A DNA stretch of 64,000 nucleotides from a virus (IMGVR_UViG_3300029288_002061:1-64000), one strand, 5' to 3'. Shown: positions 1-56,467, counted from the first letter of the stretch. A program made the numbers and translations. The notes: a model not told the origin generated them from the sequence alone.

Positions 1-17
1 CTTGTTCCTGAAGGTTC

Positions 18-53
18 GTTGCAATAATAGCAGGGGGCGAAGCCCCCTGCAAG
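18..53 (-). repeat. 36-nt CRISPR-repeat-like hairpin element (CTTGCAGGGGGCTTCGCCCCCTGCTATTATTGCAAC); alternatively a terminator or sigma70 promoter
   Basis: 9-bp stem GCAGGGGGC/GCCCCCTGC followed by TATTATTGCAAC; last 8 nt differ by one base from the ATTGAAAC handle; same length and same first 6 and last 15 nt as the element at 22148-22183. Confidence 0.55.
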
Positions 54-54
54 A

Positions 55-302
55 GTCGTCTACCTAAATGGATAAACGACAAATAGTTACTACAGCGTTT
101 TCGAGCGCCTTCAAAGAAAGCAACCAAAAACGCAAGTTTCCCTTCGATTGTCAAAGATACTTCCTGCATAACTATGTGCTACTAATGACTTTATATATTT
201 GCGAGCGCCTATTTTAGTACCATCGCTACATAACTACAGTATCCGTACTGACTTATGCCGTTTTTCTGGCATATTGTCGTTATTACAGCACAGGCGCTCG
301 CA
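55..302 (-). ncRNA. Candidate structured ncRNA directly downstream of cas7
   Basis: 13-bp closing stem 290-302/200-212 enclosing nested helices; second three-way domain 83-175; hairpin 55-80; many G-U pairs that work only on the minus strand. Confidence 0.6.
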
Positions 303-1127
303 TTAACCGATGATATCGAATTCAATACCATTCTTACTGCATACGTCTGCAATTTCCTTTTCAGAGCGGAATACAATATCATCGATATCACGGGGATAGT
401 CGATCCCGGCTTTCACAGTCGGCATAACCAGCTTTGAAAGCACATTGTAGTTTACCTTCCGCTTTTGTTGCTGAAATACGTAGATCTTACAGGTACAGGA
501 TCGTCCGAGTGCTGCAGACCCCTTATAGTCATAGGCACGGAAAGCGGCCTGCAAAAGAAGCTCAAGATCATCATCGGTAACGCCATTGACCTTTCCCATA
601 TCGGGGAAATAATTGATATTGGCCTGATATACCGAATAGGGAATGAAAGACCGCTTTGCAAAAGATCCTTGTTTTCCGTCTTCACGGGACGGCGTAGTCA
701 TACTGACATTGACGGTTTCGACTTCAGATACCGAATAGAATTCAGGGATCTGTACGGCACCGACAATAGGAGATCCTTCACAGAAAGTAGCCCCGAAGAG
801 TCGTGCATCGACAAAATCAGCACAGAACTTCTTTCGCGGATCAATTTCTTCTGTATCCTTTTCCTTACCTTTGGTCTTTTTTGCGTTCTTTACCCCGTAC
901 TGAGCAAAGATATCATTAAGATTCTGTCCGCGCTTGCAGTAGATCTTATTACCTTCGGATTCCATATAGCCACGGATACGGGCTTTATAGGACACCCCGG
1001 TAACTAGTCCACGACCATCGGGCATGATTCGCGGAGCGCCCTCATTATCGGGATCACCATTCAAATTACCCATGACACATTCGATGATCGGATACGCATT
1101 GATAGTGTTCTTACTGGAAATCTTCAT
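303..1127 (-). CDS. cas7: Cas7 (type I-C / Csd2-like) backbone subunit
   Basis: NGDPDNEGAPRI, GLVTGVSYKARIR, DARLFG, GAVQI and GVTDDDLELL motifs; start moved to ATG 1127 behind AGAAAGG. Confidence 0.9.
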   Translation of the reverse strand: MKISSKNTINAYPIIECVMGNLNGDPDNEGAPRIMPDGRGLVTGVSYKARIRGYMESEGNKIYCKRGQNLNDIFAQYGVKNAKKTKGKEKDTEEIDPRKKFCADFVDARLFGATFCEGSPIVGAVQIPEFYSVSEVETVNVSMTTPSREDGKQGSFAKRSFIPYSVYQANINYFPDMGKVNGVTDDDLELLLQAAFRAYDYKGSAALGRSCTCKIYVFQQQKRKVNYNVLSKLVMPTVKAGIDYPRDIDDIVFRSEKEIADVCSKNGIEFDIIG

Positions 1128-1140
1128 GTTAGTGCCTTTC

Positions 1141-1617
1141 TTAATCTTCTTGGTCTTCAATCTGGTTATTTTCGACAACTTCACAGGTACCGCTTTCTTC
1201 GTTTTTGTCTTCTTTTTCCGTTTTTGACGCTTTCAGCATGTCGATAAAGGACTTCATTTCTTGGTAGAACCCATACTCGAATGCAATATTCTGTTCCGGA
1301 TTGAGCCTCTTTTGGAAGTTTGGGCCGATTTCCTGTAAAATCTCTCCATAACGCTGTTCCAGCTTATTACCGAAAGCTACGTTCTTACAGTAATAACGGA
1401 TATTTCCACCGTTTTGTACAAGAAACCTCTCCGGATTTGCTTTAATGCCGTTCACGTTCTTTACCGCATACGTCGGGGAACAGTACAAAGACTCCCGTTT
1501 ATCATAGTCTTTATAGCTATTCTGCTTTTGTCGCGAGGCACAAGACAGGATAAAGAACAATCTTCCCGTGTCAGACGCTTTCTTGGCTTCCGGAGTCTTA
1601 AATTCTCCATTCTCCAT
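1141..1617 (-). CDS. cas11: Probable internally translated Cas11 small subunit (158 aa, in frame within cas8c)
   Basis: GGAGGT Shine-Dalgarno 9 nt before in-frame ATG at 1617, just before the GRLF helical domain, as established for type I-C cas8. Confidence 0.65.
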   Translation of the reverse strand: MENGEFKTPEAKKASDTGRLFFILSCASRQKQNSYKDYDKRESLYCSPTYAVKNVNGIKANPERFLVQNGGNIRYYCKNVAFGNKLEQRYGEILQEIGPNFQKRLNPEQNIAFEYGFYQEMKSFIDMLKASKTEKEDKNEESGTCEVVENNQIEDQED

Positions 1618-3066
1618 GATTGAATTACCTCCCTCGGTTTCCCTTGTCAATGCCAATCGAATCATAGCCGGAACAACAATATTATACTGTGATAGCCGAT
1701 ATCGACGGAAATATCTAACAAGCTCTGATATCACGAATGACGGTACAGGAGCTTTATCCGTAGAATTCAGCAAGAATTCTGTGAATGATTCTGCCCATTT
1801 AGGCAATACTTCGGAATAAATCTTCTTATCCATATCGAATTTCTTATGAATCCTTGCGTGGATTTCGTTCTTTTCATCCGGAGCCAATACACTTGTACAG
1901 AACTCTTCAAGAAGCGTATCAACGATGGATTTCCTGATTCCCGTCTTGCTAATCTTCGCAACAAGGGCATTGAAGAATGCTTGCCCTCCAAGATCATCAT
2001 AAACAGCTTTAAGAGAATTAACCATGACCGATGCCGGAATGTCTTTTCCCTCGGTAAAGGTAAATCTGGTATCGGCTCCGCCCATTCCAAATCGGACGAT
2101 ATGGCACATGTCCGCGCCGTAGGCACTTGTAGCATTATTGAACTTTTTGGTTACTGACAGAAAATTCGATACCGATTTTTCCGGATTAAGGAACTTTACA
2201 AAGTCTTCCACTTCTTTAATAGCACTCACAAAGAGCATGTCCTTGGAGGACTTATGAAAGGTCTTATTGCCGATAACGATATCGTCATAGGCAAACTTTA
2301 CCTTATCCGCACACTCCGAGCATATATAGAGGTCGCATCCGCCATAATAGCGTGACGTATCATCCTCTGTTGTCATCAATACTGCGCCAGTAGTACGTCC
2401 TTTTACTCCCTTGACAATCCCTAGCTTCTGCGTCTTCTTCACGTATTTTCCTGTTTTTTGGCAATACGGGCAAAATCCAGACTTACCGGTACTGTCATCA
2501 CGATAGGTATTGAAGTATCCTGACCAGATTTCTTGGAAATCAGGGTCTTCCACAAAGAAAGACTCATTAATAACGTCTACCGAGAACGCGGCTGTCAAAG
2601 ATACTTTCCCATCGCTGCTTTTAAGCCCTTTTTCAATAAGTCCATCCAACAAGTTTTGTGACAGAGGCTTTGAAACGCAATCAACAATTTGCTGGATCCC
2701 GGCAAGGATCTTCTTGGGTGCTTTTACTTGCTTTGCGTAGTCAAGGAATCGTTTATATATTGCTACCGTTCCTTCCTCCCCGTCAAAAGCCGGTCGCCGC
2801 TTAGGCCAATTACTAAAGAGATAGGCACACCCATCGATACCAAAGCGTGTATCAATATTGCTTGATCTGGAAAGCTGCAAAAGTCGCGGTGCCAATAGCT
2901 TAACAAAATGGGCCTTTGGGTTGTCAATATCTACGCAATCCCTTACAGCGACAATTTCTCCATTTTTGATAACCAACTTTACATTGGCTTTCAAATACTC
3001 AAAAGCAGTATAGTCATACTCAGGAGTTGCTCTATTCGTATAGTCGATAAGCCAGCTCAATGACAT
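1141..3066 (-). CDS. cas8c: Divergent Cas8c/Csd1-like large subunit
   Basis: 641 aa between cas5 and cas7; RSSNI motif, CPYC...CSEC zinc finger, C-terminal GRLF and EQNIAFEYGFYQE motifs. Confidence 0.75.
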   Translation of the reverse strand: MSLSWLIDYTNRATPEYDYTAFEYLKANVKLVIKNGEIVAVRDCVDIDNPKAHFVKLLAPRLLQLSRSSNIDTRFGIDGCAYLFSNWPKRRPAFDGEEGTVAIYKRFLDYAKQVKAPKKILAGIQQIVDCVSKPLSQNLLDGLIEKGLKSSDGKVSLTAAFSVDVINESFFVEDPDFQEIWSGYFNTYRDDSTGKSGFCPYCQKTGKYVKKTQKLGIVKGVKGRTTGAVLMTTEDDTSRYYGGCDLYICSECADKVKFAYDDIVIGNKTFHKSSKDMLFVSAIKEVEDFVKFLNPEKSVSNFLSVTKKFNNATSAYGADMCHIVRFGMGGADTRFTFTEGKDIPASVMVNSLKAVYDDLGGQAFFNALVAKISKTGIRKSIVDTLLEEFCTSVLAPDEKNEIHARIHKKFDMDKKIYSEVLPKWAESFTEFLLNSTDKAPVPSFVISELVRYFRRYRLSQYNIVVPAMIRLALTRETEGGNSIMENGEFKTPEAKKASDTGRLFFILSCASRQKQNSYKDYDKRESLYCSPTYAVKNVNGIKANPERFLVQNGGNIRYYCKNVAFGNKLEQRYGEILQEIGPNFQKRLNPEQNIAFEYGFYQEMKSFIDMLKASKTEKEDKNEESGTCEVVENNQIEDQED

Positions 3067-3689
3067 GTCAGAGTCTCCTTCTTGGCATTCTCATATTCAA
3101 CCCAGCCATTTTCTACGTTGGCATAGAAAAAAGTTGGGTTCTTCCGCGTTACTTTGTCAATGTTGAAGTAAGCCAGACCAAGCGGAAGATTGATGGTATT
3201 CTTCATCCTTAGCGCGTCTTGAACCGGAATAGATTCAAAATATGCAATAAAGTCGGATCGACCCATACAGGGATGTCCTTTGATACAATTCCCTGTTCTT
3301 GCGCTCTCAAGGAAAATTGCGTGATACTTCGCCTCATTACAGTCTTTTCGTCTTTCTGGCAGAATCTGATCCTTATTCAGTTCAATACGGGCAATCGCCG
3401 TATACTTCGGTTTGAATAAGCATCTTTGGATTCGCTGTTGAGGCTCATTATGCCCAAAATCCTTATACTCATTAACCATCAGCTGTACAGTAGAGGGGAT
3501 TTCGTGCAAGAACAACTTTTCAACCACATATTTAAACTGTGGTTTACGGTAGATTTTTGAAAAAACAGCCGTTACTGCCGATTCCGGCGGAAGAAGCTGT
3601 GAAATCGGATCTGCTTGTGTACCCGGAATAGTCCACAAAGCCAAATCACCCCAGAAAGTAATAGCAACTCTTTTTTGTTCCGTGTACAT
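3057..3689 (-). CDS. cas5: Cas5 (type I-C / Cas5d-like)
   Basis: WGDLALWT, PESA...IYRKP, NE, QQR and PCMGRSDF (cf. PYLGxREF) motifs; overlaps the cas8 start. Confidence 0.85.
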   Translation of the reverse strand: MYTEQKRVAITFWGDLALWTIPGTQADPISQLLPPESAVTAVFSKIYRKPQFKYVVEKLFLHEIPSTVQLMVNEYKDFGHNEPQQRIQRCLFKPKYTAIARIELNKDQILPERRKDCNEAKYHAIFLESARTGNCIKGHPCMGRSDFIAYFESIPVQDALRMKNTINLPLGLAYFNIDKVTRKNPTFFYANVENGWVEYENAKKETLTCH

Positions 3690-3709
3690 ACAGTCCCTTT
3701 CTGTTATGC

Positions 3710-3746
3710 ACTATACTAGATAAAACAACCGAAGTCAAGAGAAAAA
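3710..3746 (-). promoter_or_regulatory. Early sigma70-type promoter of the cas operon
   Basis: TTGACT (3733-3738), 17 bp, TATAGT (3710-3715), preceded by ATTTTTCTC as in the other copies. Confidence 0.85.
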
Positions 3747-3843
3747 TAATTATTTTTATGCTTTTGGTGTTCCTTTTATATTTGCTGTTAGGCCACTGAT
3801 TACCCCGCCGGACGGCGTACAGCTTGAAATTGTGATCCATTTT

Positions 3844-4884
3844 TCATTCTCCGTGCTTGAAGCAATATTCCGGGCTAACCGCCTTAAACGACATATACTT
3901 ACCGTTGATGGGTTCACAGGTGCGGAATACCAGACCTTCCGCCTGAGTACCGTTCTTGTACCGCGCCTTGGCGACTTCTGACATGATTTCTTCAATGGTT
4001 TCCCATTTGAACGTCCCCTGAAAGTACAGATCAGCCATCGGGAGGCTATACATGGAACAGAAAAGAAGCATGTCGGAGTACGAAAGAGCCTGTTTGTTAA
4101 AGTACACGTTGAACACCCGGATTTCCGGCTCTTTCAGGGTTTCCGAGTTACCCTGAATCTTCGGGCCGACGATTTCCGACTGAATCACGTATCCGGCGGG
4201 GATGTCGGCCAGCCTGTATTTCTTTGCCATTTCCCAGTACACCCCGTCATTGAGGCTCAGTTCCTGATTGCGGGAACACACCCGGAGCTTCTTTCCCTGC
4301 CGGATGAAGGTGGCGCTGGTACCATCGTGCTTGATCGTGGCATAGCACTGATTGCCCTTGAAGAAGCGGAGACGCGCCATGCAGCCCTGAATGCGGTCTT
4401 CATCGGTCTTCGATACCAATTCGGTCGGGAACGACCCGTTGGGTTCAAAATACCCGAAAAGGCCAAAGAGCTTCCACCGGAGATAGCTGTACCACTTGGC
4501 AAAGAAGCCCTTCTGGACGTTATTCGACTTACCCTGATCGGGAGTCTCTTTCTCAAACTTCGTCACCCCAACCAGCGCGGTAACGTCGGTTCCGTCGGCA
4601 TACGTACCCGTGGGGAGGATACTCATGGGGAAGCAGATACCCTGAGAGTAGAATCCCCGGATTTTCATGGTCTTGACCCGGAATTTCTTGTCACGGAGGA
4701 ATTCAAACTCCGGCTTTTCCGGGAGGACGCTATCGACCTGTACGTAAACGCACTGATCCCCGACCTTGAATTCGTCTTTCTTGACAACAACCATCCAGCC
4801 AAGGACGGCGGCGATTTCGACCTTATCGGCGTTTTCGTGCGGTACGATAGCGGTAATGGTTTCAACAGTGGCAAGCGTGTTCAT
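3844..4884 (-). CDS. RNA ligase (DRB0094/Rnl2-like, N-terminal OB domain)
   Basis: HENADKVE N-terminus, KTDEDRIQ, motif I KHDGTS, CSRN, EIVGPKIQGN, EGLVFR, SFKAVS. Confidence 0.88.
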   Translation of the reverse strand: MNTLATVETITAIVPHENADKVEIAAVLGWMVVVKKDEFKVGDQCVYVQVDSVLPEKPEFEFLRDKKFRVKTMKIRGFYSQGICFPMSILPTGTYADGTDVTALVGVTKFEKETPDQGKSNNVQKGFFAKWYSYLRWKLFGLFGYFEPNGSFPTELVSKTDEDRIQGCMARLRFFKGNQCYATIKHDGTSATFIRQGKKLRVCSRNQELSLNDGVYWEMAKKYRLADIPAGYVIQSEIVGPKIQGNSETLKEPEIRVFNVYFNKQALSYSDMLLFCSMYSLPMADLYFQGTFKWETIEEIMSEVAKARYKNGTQAEGLVFRTCEPINGKYMSFKAVSPEYCFKHGE

Positions 4885-4908
4885 AGATTCCCTTTCATTA
4901 TTCGTTTA

Positions 4909-5424
4909 TTATATTTTACATGCACCGGCTGCAAGCAATCTTGCTTCAACAATCTTATGCACATCCACGAACGTCATACCATCTGGGATCTCTACAAAAT
5001 GTACGTTTTCACATGCACCGACCTCGATATCAAAGTCAGAAAATATCTTTTCAAGAGCCGCGTAAATCTTATCATTTTCTATATCATCAATACCCCCGAA
5101 TCCGTCGTCCGGCCCGCACATAAAAGAAACGGTATCCCCGGAAAGCGGCCCCATTTCAAATGGGCAATTCAATTTTGCCTTACTTGGCGACTTTATCCCG
5201 ATGGTAGTATTACTCGTGTTCGCTGGTTTTGTGGCATTACTTTGGACTGACGGCTGTTTGTATGTAGCCGCCACGGGCGAATCATTTTCCTCTTTTTCAG
5301 GTTCTTTATCAAAAAGCGCCATGCCGTCTTTCTGTACTATCCCAATAGCACAAAGAGGACATACTTTTTCGATATTATCACAATCATCAAACACAAGATT
5401 ATTACACTTTGAACAAATATACAT
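4909..5424 (-). CDS. Hypothetical protein with N-terminal zinc ribbon
   Basis: CSKC...CPLC; AAAGGGA RBS. Confidence 0.6.
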   Translation of the reverse strand: MYICSKCNNLVFDDCDNIEKVCPLCAIGIVQKDGMALFDKEPEKEENDSPVAATYKQPSVQSNATKPANTSNTTIGIKSPSKAKLNCPFEMGPLSGDTVSFMCGPDDGFGGIDDIENDKIYAALEKIFSDFDIEVGACENVHFVEIPDGMTFVDVHKIVEARLLAAGACKI

Positions 5425-5456
5425 ACTTTTCCCTTTCATTGTCTGAGAAAAACCCA

Positions 5457-5554
5457 AGCCGGTTGGAGCCTTCTACACCATCAGGGCAGCTCCGTGTGGT
5501 ATTACCCCGGTTAATCAGACCGTGGCGGATGGTTACACCCTTTCGGAACCGGCT
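5457..5554 (-). ncRNA. Candidate ~100-nt pseudoknotted RNA downstream of an early promoter
   Basis: Closing stem AGCCGGTT/AACCGGCT, GAAA tetraloop hairpin, internal hairpins, ACCATC/GATGGT long-range pairing, followed by a T-run. Confidence 0.45.
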
Positions 5555-5597
5555 ACTTATTTGTTTTGCAGACGTATGCAGTTCCCTTTACCCCTAT

Positions 5598-5634
5598 AGC
5601 ATACACCACCGGAAGCGGGAAGTCAAGAGAAAAA
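5598..5634 (-). promoter_or_regulatory. Early sigma70-type promoter
   Basis: TTGACT 5621-5626, 17 bp, TATGCT; palindromic site 5565-5582 just downstream. Confidence 0.75.
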
Positions 5635-5642
5635 TACGAATT

Positions 5643-6098
5643 TTATTCCCATCCCGCAAATTCATCATGTTCCGCTTCTTTATACTTCCGTTTAAGGCGG
5701 GATGCCCGTTTCTGCTGCTTTGACTTCCGGATATCCCGTTTCTTCGTCTGTGAAGCATAGAAATCATCCAAGAGTTGCAGGAGTCTCAGGCACTGTGCCT
5801 TGTCAAACATCCCGATATGGGCCTTGGCCGGTGGGAGTTTAAACCACGTTGCCAGCCATTTATACGCCCCCGTCCGGGTATAGTATCCATCTTTCCACAG
5901 GTGGTCAAACCGCTTGTGGCATTTATACCGTAGATGCCGTACTTCTAACGTGGCGGGAGTACCAACCGGGGTTGTCGTTCCGGCGTGGCACCCAAGATAG
6001 CTGTTACATCTCTCGGTAGAACACCCGTAGTAGTTATCCCCGTTTTCCTTCTGTTTCAACACCATTGGCGCACCACAATCAGGGCAAATAAGATCCAT
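5643..6098 (-). CDS. DUF3268-like zinc-finger protein
   Basis: CPDCG...C...C..YLGCH.GT..P.GTPA, HKRFD.LW, RTGAYKWLA, HIGMFD. Confidence 0.75.
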   Translation of the reverse strand: MDLICPDCGAPMVLKQKENGDNYYGCSTERCNSYLGCHAGTTTPVGTPATLEVRHLRYKCHKRFDHLWKDGYYTRTGAYKWLATWFKLPPAKAHIGMFDKAQCLRLLQLLDDFYASQTKKRDIRKSKQQKRASRLKRKYKEAEHDEFAGWE

Positions 6099-6112
6099 AG
6101 ACAGTCTCCTTT

Positions 6113-7006
6113 TCAATAGAATCCGCGTTTTTCGAGCAAAGACTGGATCTCCCAAAGAGTCTTTTCAGCCACGTTTTCTTCCCTAACGGCGTCCGCGATA
6201 CTGCCGTAATGGGACTCAAAGACGTTCATGAGGACTCTCCGGATAGCCTCCTCATCGGGCTTTCGCGGGAGTGTACTCTTGGCGTAGAGTTCTTCCATCG
6301 ACTTTTCCTTGGTATCAAACCAAGACAGGATTTTTTCTTCCGTCCAGTCCCCACGGCGGACAGATTTCAGGATTTCACTGTTCCGCTCAAGGTCAAGATC
6401 CCCTTCGGTAAGGATCTGTTCGGCTTCCAGTAACAAACGAATCAGGTGATAAGCCCATTTAGTATCGAAACCAAGACGCTGTACGGTTTCAAACCGCTTT
6501 GACCCTTCTTTGGGCTGCTTGACACCCATTTTGTGCAACTGGCTATAAGCGTACCCACGGAATTTCTGGTAGCAATGGCTGCTCAGAAAGAGCTTCCGGT
6601 TTTCCCGCAGAATTTCCCCGATTTGGGTACAGTGCTTGATGCACCGGCGCGGACTGAAAAGCACATCCAGCATGTTCGGGTTATTCTCCATACAAAGATG
6701 GAAGAATTTGGCTACACCGTACAGGGTAACATCGTACTGTTTCCGGCTTTCCGGATCATCAATATGATGCTTCTGCCATGTGGTAAAACGCGGCTTAAGC
6801 TCACCAAATCCATCAATCTCCCCGGCCAGATGGGGAAATGCGATCTCCTTGGGCGGAATTACCCACCCAACAAGGTCTTCGTCGGAAGAGTCTGCGTTGT
6901 TACAGCCATAGGCGGTACTCCCGGTAATGGCAAGATACTGACAGTTTGGGATAGCCCACTTCGGCGGCTGAATAAGGTTTTGGTCATACAAGCGGTTAAG
7001 AATCAT
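6113..7006 (-). CDS. Nucleotidyltransferase (Pol beta superfamily, RlaP/YcgL-like)
   Basis: GSTAYG...SDED motif, NPNMLDVL, FDTKWAYHLIRLL. Confidence 0.85.
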   Translation of the reverse strand: MILNRLYDQNLIQPPKWAIPNCQYLAITGSTAYGCNNADSSDEDLVGWVIPPKEIAFPHLAGEIDGFGELKPRFTTWQKHHIDDPESRKQYDVTLYGVAKFFHLCMENNPNMLDVLFSPRRCIKHCTQIGEILRENRKLFLSSHCYQKFRGYAYSQLHKMGVKQPKEGSKRFETVQRLGFDTKWAYHLIRLLLEAEQILTEGDLDLERNSEILKSVRRGDWTEEKILSWFDTKEKSMEELYAKSTLPRKPDEEAIRRVLMNVFESHYGSIADAVREENVAEKTLWEIQSLLEKRGFY

Positions 7007-7019
7007 TTATAGCTCCTTA

Positions 7020-7274
7020 TCAATAGATACGTGAATCTTCAATACCGGTATAACGCCATTTCTCAAATACCATTACTGCCTCTTCTGGTGAATTCGCAAG
7101 TACACTCTTGGCACAAACTTGCCACAGGAAGTCATTGCCTTTGAAGTACCCCGGAACTGTTACCTTTTGAAGACATAGCGCGCCATTCTGGTCTTCAACC
7201 GATACCAATTGGCGATAATCATTTTGACCCTCATTTCGTTGATAATTCGCGGTTACACAGACAAGAAATTCCAT
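7020..7274 (-). CDS. Hypothetical protein
   Basis: ATG at 7274 after AAGGAGG; own promoter TTGACT 7320-7325 / TATAGT 7297-7302. Confidence 0.65.
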   Translation of the reverse strand: MEFLVCVTANYQRNEGQNDYRQLVSVEDQNGALCLQKVTVPGYFKGNDFLWQVCAKSVLANSPEEAVMVFEKWRYTGIEDSRIY

Positions 7275-7337
7275 AATTTCCTCCTTTTCTTCTATCACTA
7301 TACGCGATCTTAGACGGAAAGTCAAGAGAAAAATCAG

Positions 7338-7368
7338 AAAAATAAACCCCAACCTTTCGGCTGGGGTC
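7338..7368 (-). terminator. Intrinsic terminator after the tRNA cluster
   Basis: ACCCCAGCC-GAAA-GGTTGGGGT followed by TTATTTTT. Confidence 0.75.
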
Positions 7369-7398
7369 GGTTCCGAAGATACTATCTCCGGTGGGGTT

Positions 7399-7474
7399 TG
7401 GCGGGTTCTAGGGGAATTGAACCCCTGTTTAGAGATCGACAATCTCTCGTACTAGACCACTATACGAAGAACCC
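7399..7474 (-). tRNA. tRNA-Asp(GTC)
   Basis: Cloverleaf, AGAGA-TTGTCGA-TCTCT arm, GTTCAATTCC T arm, encoded CCA. Confidence 0.95.
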
Positions 7475-7476
7475 TT

Positions 7477-7551
<75 letters not shown>

Positions 7552-7560
7552 GTATAATTT

Positions 7561-7636
7561 TGGGTTGACTGGTCGTAATCGAAACGACGTTTCGGGAGCC
7601 ACAATCCCGCGCCTGAGCCTCTAGGCTACAGCCAAC
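7561..7636 (-). tRNA. tRNA-His(GTG)
   Basis: Cloverleaf with G-1:C73, TTGTGGC loop, encoded CCA. Confidence 0.92.
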
Positions 7637-7845
7637 ATGTTTACTACAAAAGGCATAGGATGATAAATGTCGCCCACCCTATACCGGTTCCGATTTTATA
7701 CTCCAAGACACAACCAAGAGCAAAGATACATACGATTGTCAGACACTTCTCAGCTTTCATGGCAATCCTCTTTCTTAAAGAAAAAGCCCCTGTCTCTCCG
7801 GGGTGTCACGCCTTTTTAGTCAGGGCGGCGTCTCCTGCTTTTTCT

Positions 7846-7920
7846 TGGTCGCGGGAGAGGGGATTGAACCCTCGACCTTGAGGTTATGGGCCTCACGAGC
7901 TACCTCTGCTCCATCCCGCT
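7846..7920 (-). tRNA. tRNA-Met(CAT), initiator-like
   Basis: CCCATAA loop, 1:72 mismatch (A.G), encoded CCA; promoter TTGACA 7955-7960 / TATACT 7932-7937. Confidence 0.9.
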
Positions 7921-7969
7921 ATGTTTATCCTAGTATACTTAATCAAAACCGCTTTGTCAAGAAATTACA

Positions 7970-8227
7970 TTATATGTTGTACTGGTGCCCAACATTTTGG
8001 AGTGCCACATTAACTTTCTTAGTATCCTGACTCGAATCAGATACTTTCAGTTCTATTGCTTCAAAATAATGGGTTGTTGTATCTGTACCATCATAACTAT
8101 TAACTCGGTACTCTACGTGTCCGAATCCGCTGATAAGAATACCCGTTATGATACCCTTGGCACGCGGGACTTCAAAACCAAATTCTACCACTGTACCACA
8201 CGGCATAACTGATATATTGTTCTGCAC
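7970..8227 (-). CDS. Hypothetical protein
   Basis: 85-aa ORF, GTG start after AGAGG. Confidence 0.55.
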   Translation of the reverse strand: MQNNISVMPCGTVVEFGFEVPRAKGIITGILISGFGHVEYRVNSYDGTDTTTHYFEAIELKVSDSSQDTKKVNVALQNVGHQYNI

Positions 8228-8279
8228 GGCACACCTCTTTATCCTATATTTTTACTGCATACGTATGCAGTAGATTATT

Positions 8280-8353
8280 TGGTTACTCCGGAAGGTACTG
8301 CCCCTTCACCACGGGATTCAAATTCCCGGATTCTACTATTAAACTACGGAGTA
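8280..8353 (-). tRNA. tRNA-Gln(TTG), atypical D and T loops
   Basis: TACTCCG/CGGAGTA acceptor stem, CGGGA-ATTTGAA-TCCCG arm, T loop GGCAGTA, encoded CCA. Confidence 0.85.
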
Positions 8354-8357
8354 TCAT

Positions 8358-8720
8358 TCAAGTATTATATGTCTTTCCAGAAAGAATATCACCCACACTT
8401 ATCTTTCCAAGATATCGGTATTTGTGATATCCACAGGTATCCCAAGAGACTTTGTAAATATGCCCGTCCTTCCTATCCTCTTTTTTGTCTTTTCCGGGAG
8501 TGTGCCCGACATATTCATACACATTGATAAAGGAATTCATATCTATGGGCTTTACCGTGTCCCCATTCTCTGCATCCGTAATTTGGTCGTCAAGGATAGA
8601 TTTAATAGCACCCATCGGTGTCTTATACACCAACGAATCATAGTCGAATTCATCCATGATCTTGTAGAAGTCGCCAACGTTAAGATTATCATCATATCTT
8701 GGAGCATACATGATTTCCAT
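8358..8720 (-). CDS. Hypothetical protein
   Basis: 120-aa ORF in tight operon. Confidence 0.6.
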   Translation of the reverse strand: MEIMYAPRYDDNLNVGDFYKIMDEFDYDSLVYKTPMGAIKSILDDQITDAENGDTVKPIDMNSFINVYEYVGHTPGKDKKEDRKDGHIYKVSWDTCGYHKYRYLGKISVGDILSGKTYNT

Positions 8721-8724
8721 TATT

Positions 8725-9030
8725 TTAACCTTTCTTTTTCTTTGCCGTTATTTTCCAACCCATTTCCCTACAGAAATCGACCGCTTCCCGGCGGGTCTTG
8801 AACGATCCCAAGAGAAATTCTTCCGTTTTCATCCCGCCAAACTCTTCCGGGGATCCCACATCGAGCGTCCAGACATATTCATCGGCCATTGTTTCATCTT
8901 CCTGAGCCATCCGGGCGCGGAAGCCTTTGGATTTGACCATTTCCATCACTGTTTCGGCAATAGAAGTCGGAAACACCTCTTTAATGTCCTGTTCCCACTC
9001 TTCCCGAACCGTCTTTTCACACTCACTCAT
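8725..9030 (-). CDS. Hypothetical protein
   Basis: 101-aa ORF with AAGGAG RBS. Confidence 0.6.
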   Translation of the reverse strand: MSECEKTVREEWEQDIKEVFPTSIAETVMEMVKSKGFRARMAQEDETMADEYVWTLDVGSPEEFGGMKTEEFLLGSFKTRREAVDFCREMGWKITAKKKKG

Positions 9031-9040
9031 CTCGAACTCC

Positions 9041-9538
9041 TTAAGGGTTATTGTCCAAAACTACATGTTTTCCCTTGATAGTACCATTTTTAACGGCCAA
9101 GTCAATCATATTCGAGTCATAATCAGAGTACGATACCAGCACGGACGGCGCGTTTGCATTCTGAGCCTTTACCCCGTCAATGGTATAGAACTGAATCCGC
9201 CCCTTGAAAAAGAGCAGACTTCTTGCCTTGTTGAAAATGTGTTCATGGAAACCCTTGGTCTCGGTACGGGCGAATATCAGAGCAATCCCGCTTTTATGTT
9301 CGGACATCTTCTCTATCCAAATATACATGGCTTTACCGTAAGGCGGATTGAGCCATACTCGGCCATCCCAATGCTGTTTCAGGCCGTCGTCGATGATCGT
9401 ATAGTGCTTTTTGGCGGTATCCCACGGCCTGTCTATCGGGGAACACGGGTCAAGATCAAACTCTCCAAGGGATTTAATCAAGTCCGGCGGGGTCAACCAA
9501 GTGTCATTATCGGCGGTATTGAGGTTAAAATCTCTCAC
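9041..9538 (-). CDS. Phage DNA N6-adenine methyltransferase (Dam-like)
   Basis: W.TP, FDLDPC, DGL...W...VWLNPPY, ARTET motifs. Confidence 0.9.
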   Translation of the reverse strand: MRDFNLNTADNDTWLTPPDLIKSLGEFDLDPCSPIDRPWDTAKKHYTIIDDGLKQHWDGRVWLNPPYGKAMYIWIEKMSEHKSGIALIFARTETKGFHEHIFNKARSLLFFKGRIQFYTIDGVKAQNANAPSVLVSYSDYDSNMIDLAVKNGTIKGKHVVLDNNP

Positions 9539-9753
9539 GGATTCTCCTTATATAGGCTGCACGCATAGTAAATTTTTACTGCTTCCCATGAACACATACA
9601 CTTAGTAACGGGTTCATAGACAATCTGCTCATTTGGGCCATATGCTCCCATAGTCATCCCAACAGTTTTACAAAGAAGTCCCGCTACGGCATGTTTGCAC
9701 GTAGAACAGCACGATACTTTTATAGACAAAGGTGGTTCTTCTGGATCTTTCAT
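9535..9753 (-). CDS. Small Cys-rich protein (CCxxC family, copy 7)
   Basis: PPLSIKVSCCSTC...YYACSLY. Confidence 0.65.
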   Translation of the reverse strand: MKDPEEPPLSIKVSCCSTCKHAVAGLLCKTVGMTMGAYGPNEQIVYEPVTKCMCSWEAVKIYYACSLYKENP

Positions 9754-9754
9754 G

Positions 9755-9961
9755 TTACTCCCAGTTGCTCTCTACGTACCGGCTGCATACATAGAAGTCT
9801 TTAACATCCGGCGTCTCTGTCTGATACCAACGTTTACACCACTGGACAGCTATTACCTCGTCCTGTACCCTTTCGACGCCGTGAACTCAGTATTTACAGC
9901 TTTCACAGCACGGAACCAAGACAATAAGCGGCGGAAAGTCAAGATCCGGTATCTGCCCCAT
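9755..9961 (-). pseudogene. CCxxC family copy 6 with in-frame TGA
   Basis: MGQIPDLDFPPLIVLVPCCESCKY*VHG...QWCKR...FYVCSRY; TGA at 9887-9889. Confidence 0.7.
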
Positions 9962-9963
9962 TG

Positions 9964-10197
9964 TTATTCTCGACTATCATAGGTATCAACCACGTCCTGC
10001 TCCCCAAAAGTCCACTTACTGCATACATAGCAAGGATTTGTGATAATTTTTATCCTAAAACACCACATATTTCTACTGCCGTCTGCAAGGTAGCAGGAAT
10101 ACCGACAATTTCTACAACAGCTTACTTCTACCGTTTGAAAAGGAGGTTCCGGTAAAGAATCTACCGTCTCAATAATCAGCGGTGGGTTAATACCCAT
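9964..10197 (-). CDS. Small Cys-rich protein (CCxxC family, copy 5)
   Basis: PPFQTVEVSCCRNC...WC...PCYVCSKW. Confidence 0.65.
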   Translation of the reverse strand: MGINPPLIIETVDSLPEPPFQTVEVSCCRNCRYSCYLADGSRNMWCFRIKIITNPCYVCSKWTFGEQDVVDTYDSRE

Positions 10198-10385
10198 TAT
10201 TTACTACCCGCCTTCCAGTATTTCTTGCACCAATAATAGGTCTTTACATGCCGACCACGCAGGAAACACATCATTTCGGTGTTCGCTGACTGTACCGCCC
10301 CGGCAAAAGACCCGAATCGACAGCGCATACAGCAATCTATATCTATCCGTAGCGGCGGGTCTGGTAATTGATAGTATCCGTCCAT
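10197..10385 (-). CDS. Small Cys-rich protein (CCxxC family, copy 4)
   Basis: PPLRIDIDCCMRC...MC...YYWCKKY. Confidence 0.65.
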   Translation of the reverse strand: MDGYYQLPDPPLRIDIDCCMRCRFGSFAGAVQSANTEMMCFLRGRHVKTYYWCKKYWKAGSK

Positions 10386-13422: not shown

Positions 13423-13458
13423 GCTTTTCTTCTCCTTTCGTACCATCACTATACCGGA

Positions 13459-13758
13459 CTAATAAGCCAAAGTCAAGAGAAAAATAGCAAAAAGTTTGAC
13501 GGAAATGAAAATTGTTACCCCTATAGCGAGAATGATAAGTAGCCGATCCAGAAGGTGTTCAAAGAGATCCATTACGCCCCGATCCATTCCCGCTTTGACG
13601 GCAAATCCCCGTTTTGGAGCGTTTTGGCACATTCCGGACAGACCGGAATATCCCGGAGTTCCGACCAGTACGGCGTCGGGGTGCCACACTTGAAGCAGCT
13701 TTCGTGATCCGTACCCATTTCTTCCGATTCCCTGATAATCGAAATCATTATCCTTCAT
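13459..13758 (-). CDS. Hypothetical protein with C-terminal TM helix
   Basis: ORF coupled to upstream gene. Confidence 0.5.
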   Translation of the reverse strand: MKDNDFDYQGIGRNGYGSRKLLQVWHPDAVLVGTPGYSGLSGMCQNAPKRGFAVKAGMDRGVMDLFEHLLDRLLIILAIGVTIFISVKLFAIFLLTLAY

Positions 13759-16357: not shown

Positions 16358-16389
16358 ATTGCAATAGAGCAAGTGAATAACCTTGCAAG
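16358..16389 (-). repeat. 32-nt variant of the hairpin-ATTGCAA element
   Basis: CTTGCAAGGTTATTCACTTGCTCTATTGCAAT, ~20 nt downstream of the promoter at 16410-16438. Confidence 0.45.
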
Positions 16390-21013: not shown

Positions 21014-21736
21014 TTATGATTTAGACAAAAGGATAGCCAAAATGTCTGTACCGGAAATTTCATTGAAAGTGTCCATATCAAAATTCGGAAGTTTTGTAAT
21101 AGCTTCCAATTCTTCTTTTGGTGCTTTCATAAGGGATTCTGTAAATGCCTCTTTATAACTCTTAACCTTCAAATAACCACCCGTTGTAACAAAAGAAGGA
21201 TTCTCTTTCTTTTCTTCTTTTGTCATATCTTTTTCTTCAACCCATTCCGTAAGATTAAAATATAAACAGTTAATTTCTGGCATTTCAAAATTATCATAAA
21301 TAGGCTTATCAAACAAGAAAAGGTGCTGATATCGATTGAAGAATCCTGAATTCCTATACCCGGAATTCCAATTCCCGGAATTCCTATTCCCGGAATTCCA
21401 ATTACCGGAATTACAATTACCGGAATTCCAATTACCGGAATTACAATTACCGGAATTCCCATTACCGGAATTACAATTACCGGAATTCCAATTACCGGAA
21501 TTACAAATACCGGAATTCTTATTCCCGGAATTCCAATTCCCGGAATTCCAATTCCCGGAATTCCTATTACCGGAATTCCAATTCCCGGAATTACAATTCC
21601 CGGAATTCCTATTACCGGAATTCCTATTATCGGAATTCCAATCCCCGGAATTCCTATTACCGGAATTGGAAGTGTCATCTTTAACACATTTATACCCTTG
21701 TGCCTCAAGAGCCTTTATCATATTTTCTATCTTCAA
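21014..21736 (-). CDS. Phage NSGxx pentapeptide-repeat protein
   Basis: About 21 tandem NSG(N/D)x repeats, then GFFN, WVEEKDMT.EEK, TTGGYLK, LPNFD. Confidence 0.85.
   Translation of the reverse strand: MKIENMIKALEAQGYKCVKDDTSNSGNRNSGDWNSDNRNSGNRNSGNCNSGNWNSGNRNSGNWNSGNWNSGNKNSGICNSGNWNSGNCNSGNGNSGNCNSGNWNSGNCNSGNWNSGNRNSGNWNSGYRNSGFFNRYQHLFLFDKPIYDNFEMPEINCLYFNLTEWVEEKDMTKEEKKENPSFVTTGGYLKVKSYKEAFTESLMKAPKEELEAITKLPNFDMDTFNEISGTDILAILLSKS
21340..21668. repeat. Coding 15-bp tandem repeat (CCGGAATTnnnATTn)
   Basis: Direct tandem units with no spacers, encoding the pentapeptides. Confidence 0.95.
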
Positions 21737-21749
21737 TTTATCCCCTTTC

Positions 21750-21998
21750 TTAGAGTAGATCGGTAATCCAGCATTCAAACTGATTCTTGGTCGTACAATC
21801 TTCCACCGACACCCTCTGTGCCGGGAAATCCACAAAACGGAGGATCTTTACAAACCTACGGAGTGGCCTGAAAAGGAAAATCGACTTCTTGGTCTTGAGT
21901 TCACACTCCAACTCGATACCAAAACGATATAGATCATTGAGCGTACCAATAGTGTAACCCTTGTCAAAGTAATTGTTGAGGTCTTCCAAAGTCAGCAT
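21750..21998 (-). CDS. Hypothetical protein
   Basis: AGGTGGG RBS; promoter 22021-22049. Confidence 0.55.
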   Translation of the reverse strand: MLTLEDLNNYFDKGYTIGTLNDLYRFGIELECELKTKKSIFLFRPLRRFVKILRFVDFPAQRVSVEDCTTKNQFECWITDLL

Positions 21999-22070
21999 AG
22001 TTTCCCACCTTTCTACGGATAATATACCTGATAATCCGCCGGAAGTCAAGAGAAATTTTAATAAAATATC

Positions 22071-22100
22071 AAAAATAATCCCCGCCTTTCGACGGGGATT
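22071..22100 (-). terminator. Intrinsic terminator
   Basis: AATCCCCGTC-GAAA-GGCGGGGATT-ATTTTT. Confidence 0.8.
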
Positions 22101-22117
22101 TGACTGCATACGTCTGC

Positions 22118-22183
22118 ACCGGCATACCACTTGATCTTGACACCCTTGTTGCAATAATAGCAAGTAGCCTAATTACTTGCAAG
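22118..22183 (-). CRISPR. Candidate solitary repeat-spacer unit
   Basis: 36-nt CTTGCAAGTAATTAGGCTACTTGCTATTATTGCAAC (22148-22183) followed by 30 nt sharing 20 identical bases with the adjacent gene (22119-22138 = 22250-22269). Confidence 0.45.
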
Positions 22184-22185
22184 AT

Positions 22186-23424
22186 TTACTTAAATTCGGT
22201 AGTCGCGGTAGCGATCCCACCACAAACCTCCATTTCATCGGACACACAGCCGGCATACCACTTGATCTTCACGCCGCGAAGAGCAAGACGCAAAACGGGA
22301 GTCATTTTAAGGTCAAAGATACGGTGCTTACCCGACTTGATCCGCTTGGTAAACTCCTTGGCACTCTCGGTAAGCTCTTGGTCTTCACCGGTATCGGTAA
22401 TAAACAGAACGCCATCACCGATTTCCAGCATAACATAGAGGTCATAGTTAAACTGGGTCGTCTTTCCACGGAGGACATCCGCTACCGTCGGTGTAGCCAC
22501 GGCGGGAGCCGTAACTTCAAGGTCGGCAACCACTTCCTCATTATCCGTAGTAACTTCTCGTGTGGCGGAAAAGGCCATTACAGGCGTTTCATCCGATACT
22601 ACAACGGTAGTGCCTGTATCTCCATCATCATTGTCTTCCGGAGTACCATAGACAAGGATATTGCCATTGGAGTCTACGACGTTTCCGGTTGTTTCATCAT
22701 ACTGGACAAGGTTTTCATCGTACCCTTCCGGCAGGCAGAGGATAGAGCTTCCATAGACACAGTTGGTATAACCCCCACCGTTTATGCGTGTATTAAAGCT
22801 AATTCCATCAGAAGAAACTCCGGGGTCGGCAAGCGTAACCGTCAAGGTGCTAAGATCAAGGCCGAGAACAAGAGCCGCCCCGGAGATGTTGCTATTCCAA
22901 CCGATACTGACGTAATCATAGGTGACTGCATCGGGGATGTCAACAAGAAAAGTATCTCCTACATATCCGATAGGCGTCTTATCCCAAGGAAGAATAGGGA
23001 AGTTATTTACAGATGTTTCAGTCACAATGATGGCATATGCCTTATCTTCCTTACGGAGCAAGCAGCTACCCTTACTATTCGTGAGGCGAACACTGAAGTA
23101 ATATGTTCCAGAAGGTACATACGTAGTGCCGTATATGAATCCGGAACTTGGTTCCATCACAAGCCCTTCAGGAAGGCCATATGCGGTATAAGTCACCTTC
23201 CCATACTCAGGACGACCAGCCGCGCCACTCCAAAGGATACCGCGCCAGAATCCAATACGGAATTGTGCCTTGATACCGGAAGACACGATCTGTTGTGGCA
23301 CACCGGCGATTTCCTCGGTCGGCATGTCCTCAACAACCGGAATCGGGTCGCCAAGCAAGGCGAAAGCAGTATTACCACCAAAAGACAGCAACAGCACAGT
23401 GAGCAGCTTCACAAACGTCTTCAT
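22186..23424 (-). CDS. Secreted/surface protein with putative Ig (He_PIG-like) domain
   Basis: Signal peptide ending AFA; YTAYGLPEGLVMEPSSGFIYGT; early promoter 23480-23508. Confidence 0.75.
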   Translation of the reverse strand: MKTFVKLLTVLLLSFGGNTAFALLGDPIPVVEDMPTEEIAGVPQQIVSSGIKAQFRIGFWRGILWSGAAGRPEYGKVTYTAYGLPEGLVMEPSSGFIYGTTYVPSGTYYFSVRLTNSKGSCLLRKEDKAYAIIVTETSVNNFPILPWDKTPIGYVGDTFLVDIPDAVTYDYVSIGWNSNISGAALVLGLDLSTLTVTLADPGVSSDGISFNTRINGGGYTNCVYGSSILCLPEGYDENLVQYDETTGNVVDSNGNILVYGTPEDNDDGDTGTTVVVSDETPVMAFSATREVTTDNEEVVADLEVTAPAVATPTVADVLRGKTTQFNYDLYVMLEIGDGVLFITDTGEDQELTESAKEFTKRIKSGKHRIFDLKMTPVLRLALRGVKIKWYAGCVSDEMEVCGGIATATTEFK

Positions 23425-23526
23425 AGTATTTCTCCTTTATTTCCCATAGTTGAGACAGCCCCTTGCCATCTCTACTTGTACTGTACCCGACTTTTCCACA
23501 AAAGTCAAGAGAAAAATAGAAAAATA

Positions 23527-42502: not shown

Positions 42503-42556
42503 CGCACACCCTCACAACAAGACTAAGACAACAAGCACAACTGCATACGTATGCAG

Positions 42557-43108
42557 TTAAGTGTTCAAACCACTTTGCGGCGCACCATTAGGGTTATTCT
42601 GGCCGCTGCTGATAACCTTCATACCCTCGTGCTGGATAACAACGGACTCGATAACCACCTCGCTACCCATTGCATTCAAAGCGCCAAGACGAAGCTCACT
42701 GGGCCAAGCATTCATCAAAACCCATGTCTTATTTGCGCTGCCGGACGAGGATTCGCCCTTACCATAGAGCTTAATAGTGATGGTTCTGCGGTATTGCGGA
42801 GGAATAATACCATCACCGTAACCGGAGCCGCCGTTTGTCGCACTGGCGTCCTCGTAGGACGCACACTGATTACGCCAATCCAGAAGAATCGTGCTATTAC
42901 TGAGGCCGCGCTGCATCGTAACGGGCTGCCATTCAATCAGACCGGGGAACTTCCGCATCCAAATTGGCATGTTTCCTTCACGGTATTGTACAACAGCGGA
43001 GACGCTATTCAAGCCATCCACCTGAGAAAAGCCAATCTTTTCATAGGGCGGAATGTCCACTTGAAACTTCATACCAAGATAAGGTTCATAACTGGTAACA
43101 TCAGCCAT
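42557..43108 (-). CDS. Tail tube protein (gp19-like) 1
   Basis: GFSQVDGL, YREG, K.PG, NAWPS, LNA...EV.IE. Confidence 0.92.
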   Translation of the reverse strand: MADVTSYEPYLGMKFQVDIPPYEKIGFSQVDGLNSVSAVVQYREGNMPIWMRKFPGLIEWQPVTMQRGLSNSTILLDWRNQCASYEDASATNGGSGYGDGIIPPQYRRTITIKLYGKGESSSGSANKTWVLMNAWPSELRLGALNAMGSEVVIESVVIQHEGMKVISSGQNNPNGAPQSGLNT

Positions 43109-50456: not shown

Positions 50457-50500
50457 ATTGCAATAATAGTAAATAACCAGTTGAAGGAAAAGTTATCTAC
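50457..50500 (-). promoter_or_regulatory. Hairpin-TATTATTGCAA element (possible late promoter or RNA processing site)
   Basis: GTAGATAAC/GTTATTTAC stem then TATTATTGCAAT, after the capsid terminator. Confidence 0.5.
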
Positions 50501-56429: not shown

Positions 56430-56467
56430 GTTGCAATAATAGCAAGGACTTCTACTAGGGTGCCTTG
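56430..56467 (-). promoter_or_regulatory. Hairpin-TGCTATTATTGCAAC element upstream of the head operon
   Basis: CAAGG/CCTTG stem; last 15 nt identical to the copies at 18 and 22148. Confidence 0.5.

Follow-up and report, generated by a model that had tools for sequence, protein, structure and literature searches.

The Ig-domain gene and its 3′ flank

The window analysed here, a stretch of 64,000 nt (64 kb), is the first part of a 106,039-bp phage record in IMG/VR from a landfill source. The record is classed as linear and is an incomplete fragment with an estimated completeness of 79% (CheckV), the full phage genome size being ~130 kb. A reading of the contig as a circle, in which the repeat at 18-53 stands in front of the polA gene of the far end, was dropped because the record is a linear fragment of this completeness.

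The genes near 22118-22186 lie on the minus strand, and the features are described in the order of that strand (Table 1). The protein encoded by the Ig-domain gene is variable among relatives in its N-terminal two thirds and conserved in its C-terminal ~130 aa. After the TAA stop of this gene and a single A comes a 36-nt element (22183-22148), followed by a 30-nt spacer-like fragment and by the palindromic site (22118-22103) and strong terminator (22100-22077 and a T run) that the initial annotation had placed next to it; both are confirmed. The near-palindrome, of the form TGCA-N-ACGT-N-TGCA, has 29 copies on the contig (~1 per 3.6 kb), inside and between genes, most of which keep an oriented 11-mer, ACTGCATACGT (e.g., 336-353, 8254-8271, and 42540-42557).

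The 30-nt fragment is a repeat of codons 384-393 of the Ig-domain gene. The two copies are identical at 24 of 30 positions, 20 of them in a row (22119-22138 and 22250-22269), and differ at positions 1, 2, 3, 6, 9, and 30, which agrees in every detail with what had been annotated at the outset, on the minus strand. The gene's own copy (22278-22249) reads CGCGGCGTGAAGATCAAGTGGTATGCCGGC and is preceded by CTT at 22281-22279, the candidate PAM position. An exact repeat of 20 nt is far beyond chance (blastn-short E of 3e-6 against the whole 106-kb contig). The first T of the palindrome is exactly where the homology to the gene ends.

Table 1. Features of the Ig-domain locus and of the cas locus
Feature	Position	Strand	Description
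Putative CRISPR leader with first repeat and spacer 1	1..302	-	250-nt leader at 54-302; first repeat at 18-53; spacer 1 cut off after 17 nt (1-17)
cas7	303-1184	-	divergent type I-C-like system
cas8c	1141-3066	-	divergent type I-C-like system
cas5c	3057-3689	-	divergent type I-C-like system
Early-type sigma-70 promoter of the next gene (ATG 21998)	22021..22049	-	TTGACT-17-TATATT
Intrinsic terminator	22067..22100	-	10-bp stem and T run; ancestral, in all relatives
16-bp near-palindrome	22103..22118	.	TGCAGACGTATGCAGT; 1 of 29 copies on the contig
30-nt spacer-like fragment	22118..22147	-	AAGGGTGTCAAGATCAAGTGGTATGCCGGT; encodes KGVKIKWYAG
Solitary variant repeat, 36 nt	22148..22183	-	CTT, hairpin, and tail TATTATTGCAAC
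Ig-domain gene	22186..23424	-	412 aa; signal-peptide-like N-terminus; He_PIG Ig domain
Own-gene copy of the 30-nt segment, with flank	22249..22281	-	codons R384-G393 at 22278-22249
Early-type promoter of the Ig-domain gene	23480..23508	-	

Transcripts from the promoter of the Ig-domain gene would read into the 36-nt element. This promoter belongs to a family of at least 10 near-identical early-type copies, each made of an A-rich stretch, TTGACT, 17 nt, and a TATAGT-like box (e.g., 3710-3754, 13448-13492, 22021-22065, and 23480-23524), which serves minus-strand genes, the Ig-domain gene and the cas operon among them. In a single-sequence fold, the 30-nt fragment forms a long-range pairing with the region past the terminator.

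The cas locus and the 36-nt element

The phage Cas5 aligns to type I-C pre-crRNA endonucleases (PDB 3KG4, 8DEX). In this alignment a Tyr within an IYRKP stretch is aligned, and K-Y-H stands at the K-H position. The Tyr and K-H positions are those which we take to be the catalytic positions of Cas5c. No cas1, cas2, or cas3 gene was found in the 106 kb of the incomplete contig. Since this contig is a fragment that ends 17 nt past the cas-proximal repeat, this result does not establish a Cascade without cas3 or a phage without an array.

The ~250-nt "structured RNA" that follows cas7 is most readily understood as a CRISPR leader; it resembles in length the 236-237-nt leaders of two relatives (L291 and L292) and shows patchy conservation with a third (L285). 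The contig most likely breaks inside the array, with the array and any Cas3-like helicase probably lying just off its end, and an ending in a repeat is what would be expected of a k=31 assembly at repeated sequence.

L291 and L292 have the nearest Cas7 relatives in a library-wide profile search (45 and 34% identity). L291 carries cas5c-cas8c-cas7, and L292, whose contig begins within cas8c, carries cas8c-cas7. In both, the leader is followed by an array, of 20 and 12 repeats, respectively, with repeats of 36-37 nt that begin with GTT or GTTTG, contain a 7-9-bp hairpin, and end in a tail of TATATTGAAAT or CTGTATTGAAAC, and with spacers of 31-38 nt. A Cas3-like helicase lies 3′ of each array, without a called HD domain, and in L291 a PDDEXK nuclease comes next. 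None of the spacers of these two arrays matches the phage or its relatives. The L291 locus (2029-10269) is part of a 344,634-bp contig (JGI 3300037067), which may be that of a huge phage with a type I-C variant; its metagenome is also that of L120, one of the relatives described below.

The 36-nt element (22183-22148) consists of CTT, a 7-bp hairpin (GCAAGTA/TACTTGC) with a 7-nt loop, and a tail. Type I-C-like repeats are 32-37 nt in length with a hairpin and an 11-12-nt single-stranded tail that ends in a ATTGAAAC-like sequence, and the element has all of these features. A standard I-C repeat (L289) ends in GCGGATTGAAAC, and the standard I-C locus has the same plan. The solitary element and the cas-proximal repeat (18-53) are of equal length, 36 nt, and identical over their first 6 nt and their last 15 nt; the 15 nt in between differ and still pair, the cas-proximal stem being GCAGGGGGC/GCCCCCTGC. 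In L285, whose Cas7 is 61% identical, the cas-proximal element is the same letter for letter up to the end of the contig, 30 nt into the repeat. The cas-proximal copy, together with arrays of the same build in the nearest Cas7 relatives, indicates that the 36-nt element is a CRISPR repeat of the phage's own type I-C-like system, as had been supposed, with the copy at 22148 as a solitary variant that differs in the stem.

Exact searches of viral contigs gave single chance matches only for the repeat tail, and no match for the full end of the cas-proximal repeat. Among the matches listed from a scan of 185,579 species genomes, there was no array with this repeat. Matches to a paired-tail pattern in species genomes and viral contigs were rejected as mostly coding tandem repeats and unrelated arrays; the arrays included Thermococcus ones, in the opposite orientation, and one of 40 repeats ending in ATTGCAAC (L236), and none had the repeat's sequence.

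In consensus scans, a terminator-like site and one resembling an extended -10 promoter are both called on the element, which could thus be a compact terminator-plus-promoter cassette foreign to CRISPR, made of a hairpin with a U-rich tail and an overlapping TTGCAA-17-TGcTATTAT, and several copies do lie 16-53 nt upstream of start codons. This cassette was set aside once the arrays of the nearest Cas7 relatives had been found, in which build and position are equal to those seen here, and we consider it most improbable. Further points against it are that the TATTAT box is lost, and TTGCAA(C/T) kept, in the copy at 16358 and in that of the relative X2, and that the element is perfectly conserved beside a Cas7 of 61% identity.

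The copy at 16358-16389 (minus strand) is a further solitary repeat-like element, with a hairpin and TCTATTGCAAT, located in the 5′ UTR of a DUF2201 gene, shortly downstream of an early promoter. By comparison with L293 (11536-11639), it is part of a 64-nt insertion that brings unrelated flanks of 19 nt upstream and ~14 nt downstream. Only chance matches in GenBank phages were obtained for the sequence that comes next to this repeat on its 3′ side. More elements with a hairpin and an ATTGCAA(C/T/A)-type tail occur at 56430-56467 and 50457-50500 of the window and at 89406-89443 and 95413-95450 (minus strand) of the genome. All of them are on the transcribed strand, at distances of 16-53 nt from the start codons that they precede, and they could be sites at which Cas5c cuts mRNA leaders.

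Three states of the locus among relatives

Five related contigs, found through homologues of the Ig-domain protein (L001, L120, L121/L122, L123, and L124), carry at this place the stop codon, 3-13 nt, the palindrome, the same terminator, and the same promoter, without the repeat and without the fragment. In a sixth contig (run X6), position 22118 is joined directly to 22186. The 66 nt that make up the repeat and the fragment are therefore an insertion.

A closer relative (run X2; ~93% identical) keeps the repeat at the locus with six small changes, followed by 12 nt (AAGTGATAGAAC) and then by the palindrome. The sequence of X2 was rebuilt from difference tables, and the rebuilding is supported by these 12 nt, since they match AAGTAATAGAAC of L123, that is, the last codon, stop, and intergenic bases of the ancestral gene end. 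The X2 state suggests that insertion of the repeat went along with duplication of local gene sequence. The locus thus occurs in three natural states: no repeat, repeat with a 12-nt duplicate of the gene end, and repeat with the 30-nt internal fragment; only a single genome shows the last of these.

The sequence of the phage to the right of the repeat departs from that of X2 in the orientation of the palindrome and in the promoter region, which is wholly different (72 letters replaced); the repeat therefore sits at a mosaic breakpoint. The palindrome at 22103-22118 is inverted relative to all relatives. Furthermore, GCCGGT followed by the palindrome recurs at 102071-102091, and five extra flanking bases (GCCGG) are common to both sites. 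A CAAG microhomology is found at the left junction, between repeat and fragment, and the palindrome forms the right junction. These junctions and the X2 state argue for recombination as the origin of the unit, which was most likely built by microhomology-mediated recombination and not by Cas1-Cas2.

Much of this evidence would also fit an inert recombination scar, in which the 30 nt are a leftover of templated or illegitimate recombination that is not used as a guide. The leftover would stem from a co-infecting or ancestral allele and would have been trapped between the repeat hairpin and the palindrome, the variant repeat being unprocessed or the resulting complex being without consequence. 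All of the following are consistent with such a scar: the ancestral, L123-type gene end behind the repeat in X2, the CAAG microhomology, the end of the fragment exactly at an inverted palindrome whose GCCGGT-flanked form recurs elsewhere, the exchanged promoter region, the insertion with unrelated flanks around the repeat at 16358, and a unit that is private to one genome and for which no exact target was found. We regard the scar as a real possibility, the main rival to use as a guide and somewhat less likely than it; if the scar is the right account, solitary CRISPR repeats would mark recombination junctions in phage genomes. The initial annotation had itself named a leftover 3′ end of a duplicated or replaced gene as what would refute its reading. 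That alternative is borne out in part, by the gene-end leftover of X2 and the mosaic breakpoint, but the fragment of the phage is internal: its source segment lies 60 nt before the stop, and it is therefore not a leftover gene end. A plain leftover of gene replacement would keep the true 3′ end beside the palindrome rather than 30 internal nt, and the scar needs at least two events or a templated insertion.

The placement of the repeat in X2 also allows a more speculative scenario. The repeat there lies exactly between TTC (...GAA TTC AAG TAA) and the sequence that adjoins this TTC in the repeat-less relatives. TTC is the canonical I-C PAM. Because the repeat is placed after it, the insertion would destroy its own target and would make a guide of the downstream DNA, directed at sister phages in which the site is empty. 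Once that site was attacked, recombinational repair from the carrier would copy the repeat, and the 30-nt fragment would be the product of one such repair. The solitary repeat would in this way propagate itself as a natural CRISPR gene drive from phage to phage, which strikes us as highly improbable.

Matches of the 30-nt fragment

The fragment matches the alleles of sister phages better than the carrier's own gene. The best match is to L001 (28/30; mismatches at 6 and 9; flank CTC), followed by X2 (27/30; mismatches at 6, 9, and 27; flank CTT), compared with 24/30 for the own gene (mismatches at 1, 2, 3, 6, 9, and 30; flank CTT). Both differences from L001 are synonymous third positions, which suggests that the fragment was copied from a working, unsampled allele. 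These alignments identify the fragment as an internal stretch of the adjacent gene, taken from a foreign allele. The lack of visible decay that the synonymous differences indicate counts against an inert scar.

A perfect 30/30 protospacer was not found in viral contigs, metagenome contigs, or GenBank phages. The 20-nt core has no match in viral contigs; a single match in a metagenome contig was rejected as the conserved KIKWYAG motif of an unrelated bacterial gene. The whole fragment gave chance matches only in GenBank phages, neither blastn with the locus in GenBank phages nor a search of IMG/VR for a protein pattern gave any match, and a search for shorter homologues of the C-terminus of the Ig-domain gene found none.

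Type I complexes do not read every sixth base, position 6 being flipped out. The flanks of the targets, CTC or CTT, are candidate PAMs that are known to work in other I-C systems, the Cas8c here being divergent; both are functional in interference in the I-C systems of B. halodurans and L. pneumophila (PMC5602111). The initial annotation had proposed a guide taken from the homolog of a related phage and had looked to a perfect match with its PAM. The non-self allele and the plausible PAM flanks hold good, but no perfect protospacer and no second repeat came to light. Its idea that mismatches in the PAM-proximal seed spare the phage's own gene holds for positions 1-3 as far as the pairing is concerned. 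The K-to-R codon responsible (AAG to CGC) is also polymorphic (AAG/CGY) between L120 and L121 and is therefore not counted as clear evidence of escape. That the fragment is in the sense orientation, from which it had been argued that it cannot be an antisense RNA, is irrelevant for DNA targeting.

Possible function as a solitary guide

The reading that we favour, with a probability of roughly 45%, is that the unit is a solitary repeat-spacer, built by recombination, which loads the phage's own Cascade against sister phages. We infer its transcription, processing by Cas5c, loading, and targeting as follows. Transcription from the early promoter of the Ig-domain gene would read past the stop into the variant repeat, where Cas5c would cut at the 3′ base of the hairpin and leave an 11-12-nt AUUAUUGCAAC handle. 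Cas7, Cas8c, and Cas5c would assemble on the following 30 nt, and the ancestral terminator would end the RNA. In sister phages, the guide would pair with the template strand of their Ig-domain gene, with 1-2 effective mismatches and a CTC/CTT PAM, and would not pair with the own allele owing to three consecutive seed mismatches. The complex might then block co-infecting relatives, or destroy them with the help of a Cas3-like helicase-nuclease.

If Cas5c accepts the variant repeat, whatever adjoins it on the 3′ side becomes a guide. This default loading of the adjoining sequence from a repeat once it is processed also weighs against an inert scar. Recognition of the solitary repeat by Cas5c is an assumption, because its stem differs from that of the cas-proximal repeat. 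Against a guide stand the lack of a recognisable second repeat, in place of which there are the palindrome and the ancestral terminator, and the length of the fragment, which at 30 nt is just under the 31-38 nt of the spacers in the L291 and L292 arrays, as do the failure to find an exact protospacer and the occurrence of the unit in a single genome, which gives no sign of selection. Furthermore, the position of the fragment is equally well explained by a recombination junction, given the 12-nt gene-end state of X2 and its differing right side.

Comparison with known systems

Viral mini-arrays typically target related viruses (PMC11656645). As in the phage described here, they place a repeat and one spacer in a viral genome, are read as a means of competition between viruses, and have a spacer that matches the homologous gene of relatives while the carrier itself is mismatched. 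Unlike mini-arrays, the present unit has only one repeat and ends in a terminator, with no pair of flanking repeats; its repeat is a stem-variant of the phage's cas-linked repeat and not a copy of a host repeat; and it adjoins the homologous gene and was seemingly made by recombination rather than adaptation.

Single CRISPR repeats dispersed in a phage genome are likewise a feature of Racrs (Camara-Wilpert et al., 2023; PMC10651486), in which small RNAs contain the transcribed repeats. Viral solitary repeat units are known RNA anti-CRISPRs (PMC10651486; PMC11656645), and the present repeat might similarly be a decoy or titrating RNA that buffers the Cas proteins of the phage or mimics an I-C repeat of the host, with no role for the 30 nt. 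The phage has at least four more solitary copies on its transcribed strand, and X2 has the repeat without the fragment, both of which are consistent with this role. Racrs, however, mimic host repeats and need no meaningful spacer, whereas the phage encodes matching Cas5c, Cas8c, and Cas7, and the sequence after its repeat nearly matches sister phages. The repeat corresponds to the phage's own system and not to a known host array, the species-genome scan having listed no array of its sequence, and a decoy leaves the foreign-allele fragment unexplained. We judge a decoy improbable.

Standalone repeats with a partially matching spacer are also known as CreA, CreR, and crlRNA (bioRxiv 10.1101/2023.03.03.530964; 10.1101/2024.10.29.618823). 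Partial-match crRNA-like RNAs are widespread in type I loci (bioRxiv 10.1101/2023.03.03.530964), and an RNA of this kind could let Cascade tune the phage's own Ig-domain gene through partial complementarity, the target lying 131 nt away on the same molecule. These known regulators load Cascade, which for the present unit is a proposal, and they match promoters, those of cas, toxin, or defence genes, through the PAM-proximal seed. In contrast, the only self-match here is in the 3′ part of a coding region and is mismatched at the PAM-proximal positions 1-3, so self-directed regulation is hardly to be expected. Taken together, the decoy, the self-directed regulator, and the non-CRISPR cassette are less likely than either the guide or the scar.

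A cas5c-cas8c-cas7 set on a phage is the feature that this system has in common with phage-encoded type I-C variants. Al-Shayeb et al. reportedly described in 2020 that the I-C variants of huge phages carry a helicase in place of Cas3. The phage analysed here differs from these in its size of ~130 kb, in a contig whose end leaves out the array and any helicase, and in its dispersed solitary repeats.

Descriptions already exist of CRISPR systems carried by phages, of viral mini-arrays directed at relatives, and of solitary repeat units. What is new is their combination, in which a repeat that varies in its stem from the phage's own is joined to one guide, derived by recombination and placed beside the homologous gene, and to a terminator that replaces the second repeat, as well as the natural three-state series at the locus. 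If the unit is loaded, a single repeat and a terminator would suffice to arm the phage's own Cascade, and a guide could be gained by ordinary recombination with a rival, without Cas1-Cas2. This would widen the view of how guides of viruses against viruses originate, and such guides would be missed by array-finding programs. With its three natural states and two natural target alleles, the locus offers a clean test.

Other features of the contig

Beyond the promoter that follows the terminator, a gene for a pentapeptide-repeat protein (21014-21835, minus strand) contains ~30 tandem 15-nt units at 21270-21727. It is present in L121/L293, and because no such gene is called at the same position in L001 or L123, this region is a site of variable cassettes. 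The other end of the contig is occupied by a family A DNA polymerase gene (102182-106039 of the genome; L286:16143-20000, minus strand), which runs off the contig. The polymerase contains an intein in which Hint and LAGLIDADG domains are found, and a second, weak match is Hint-like.
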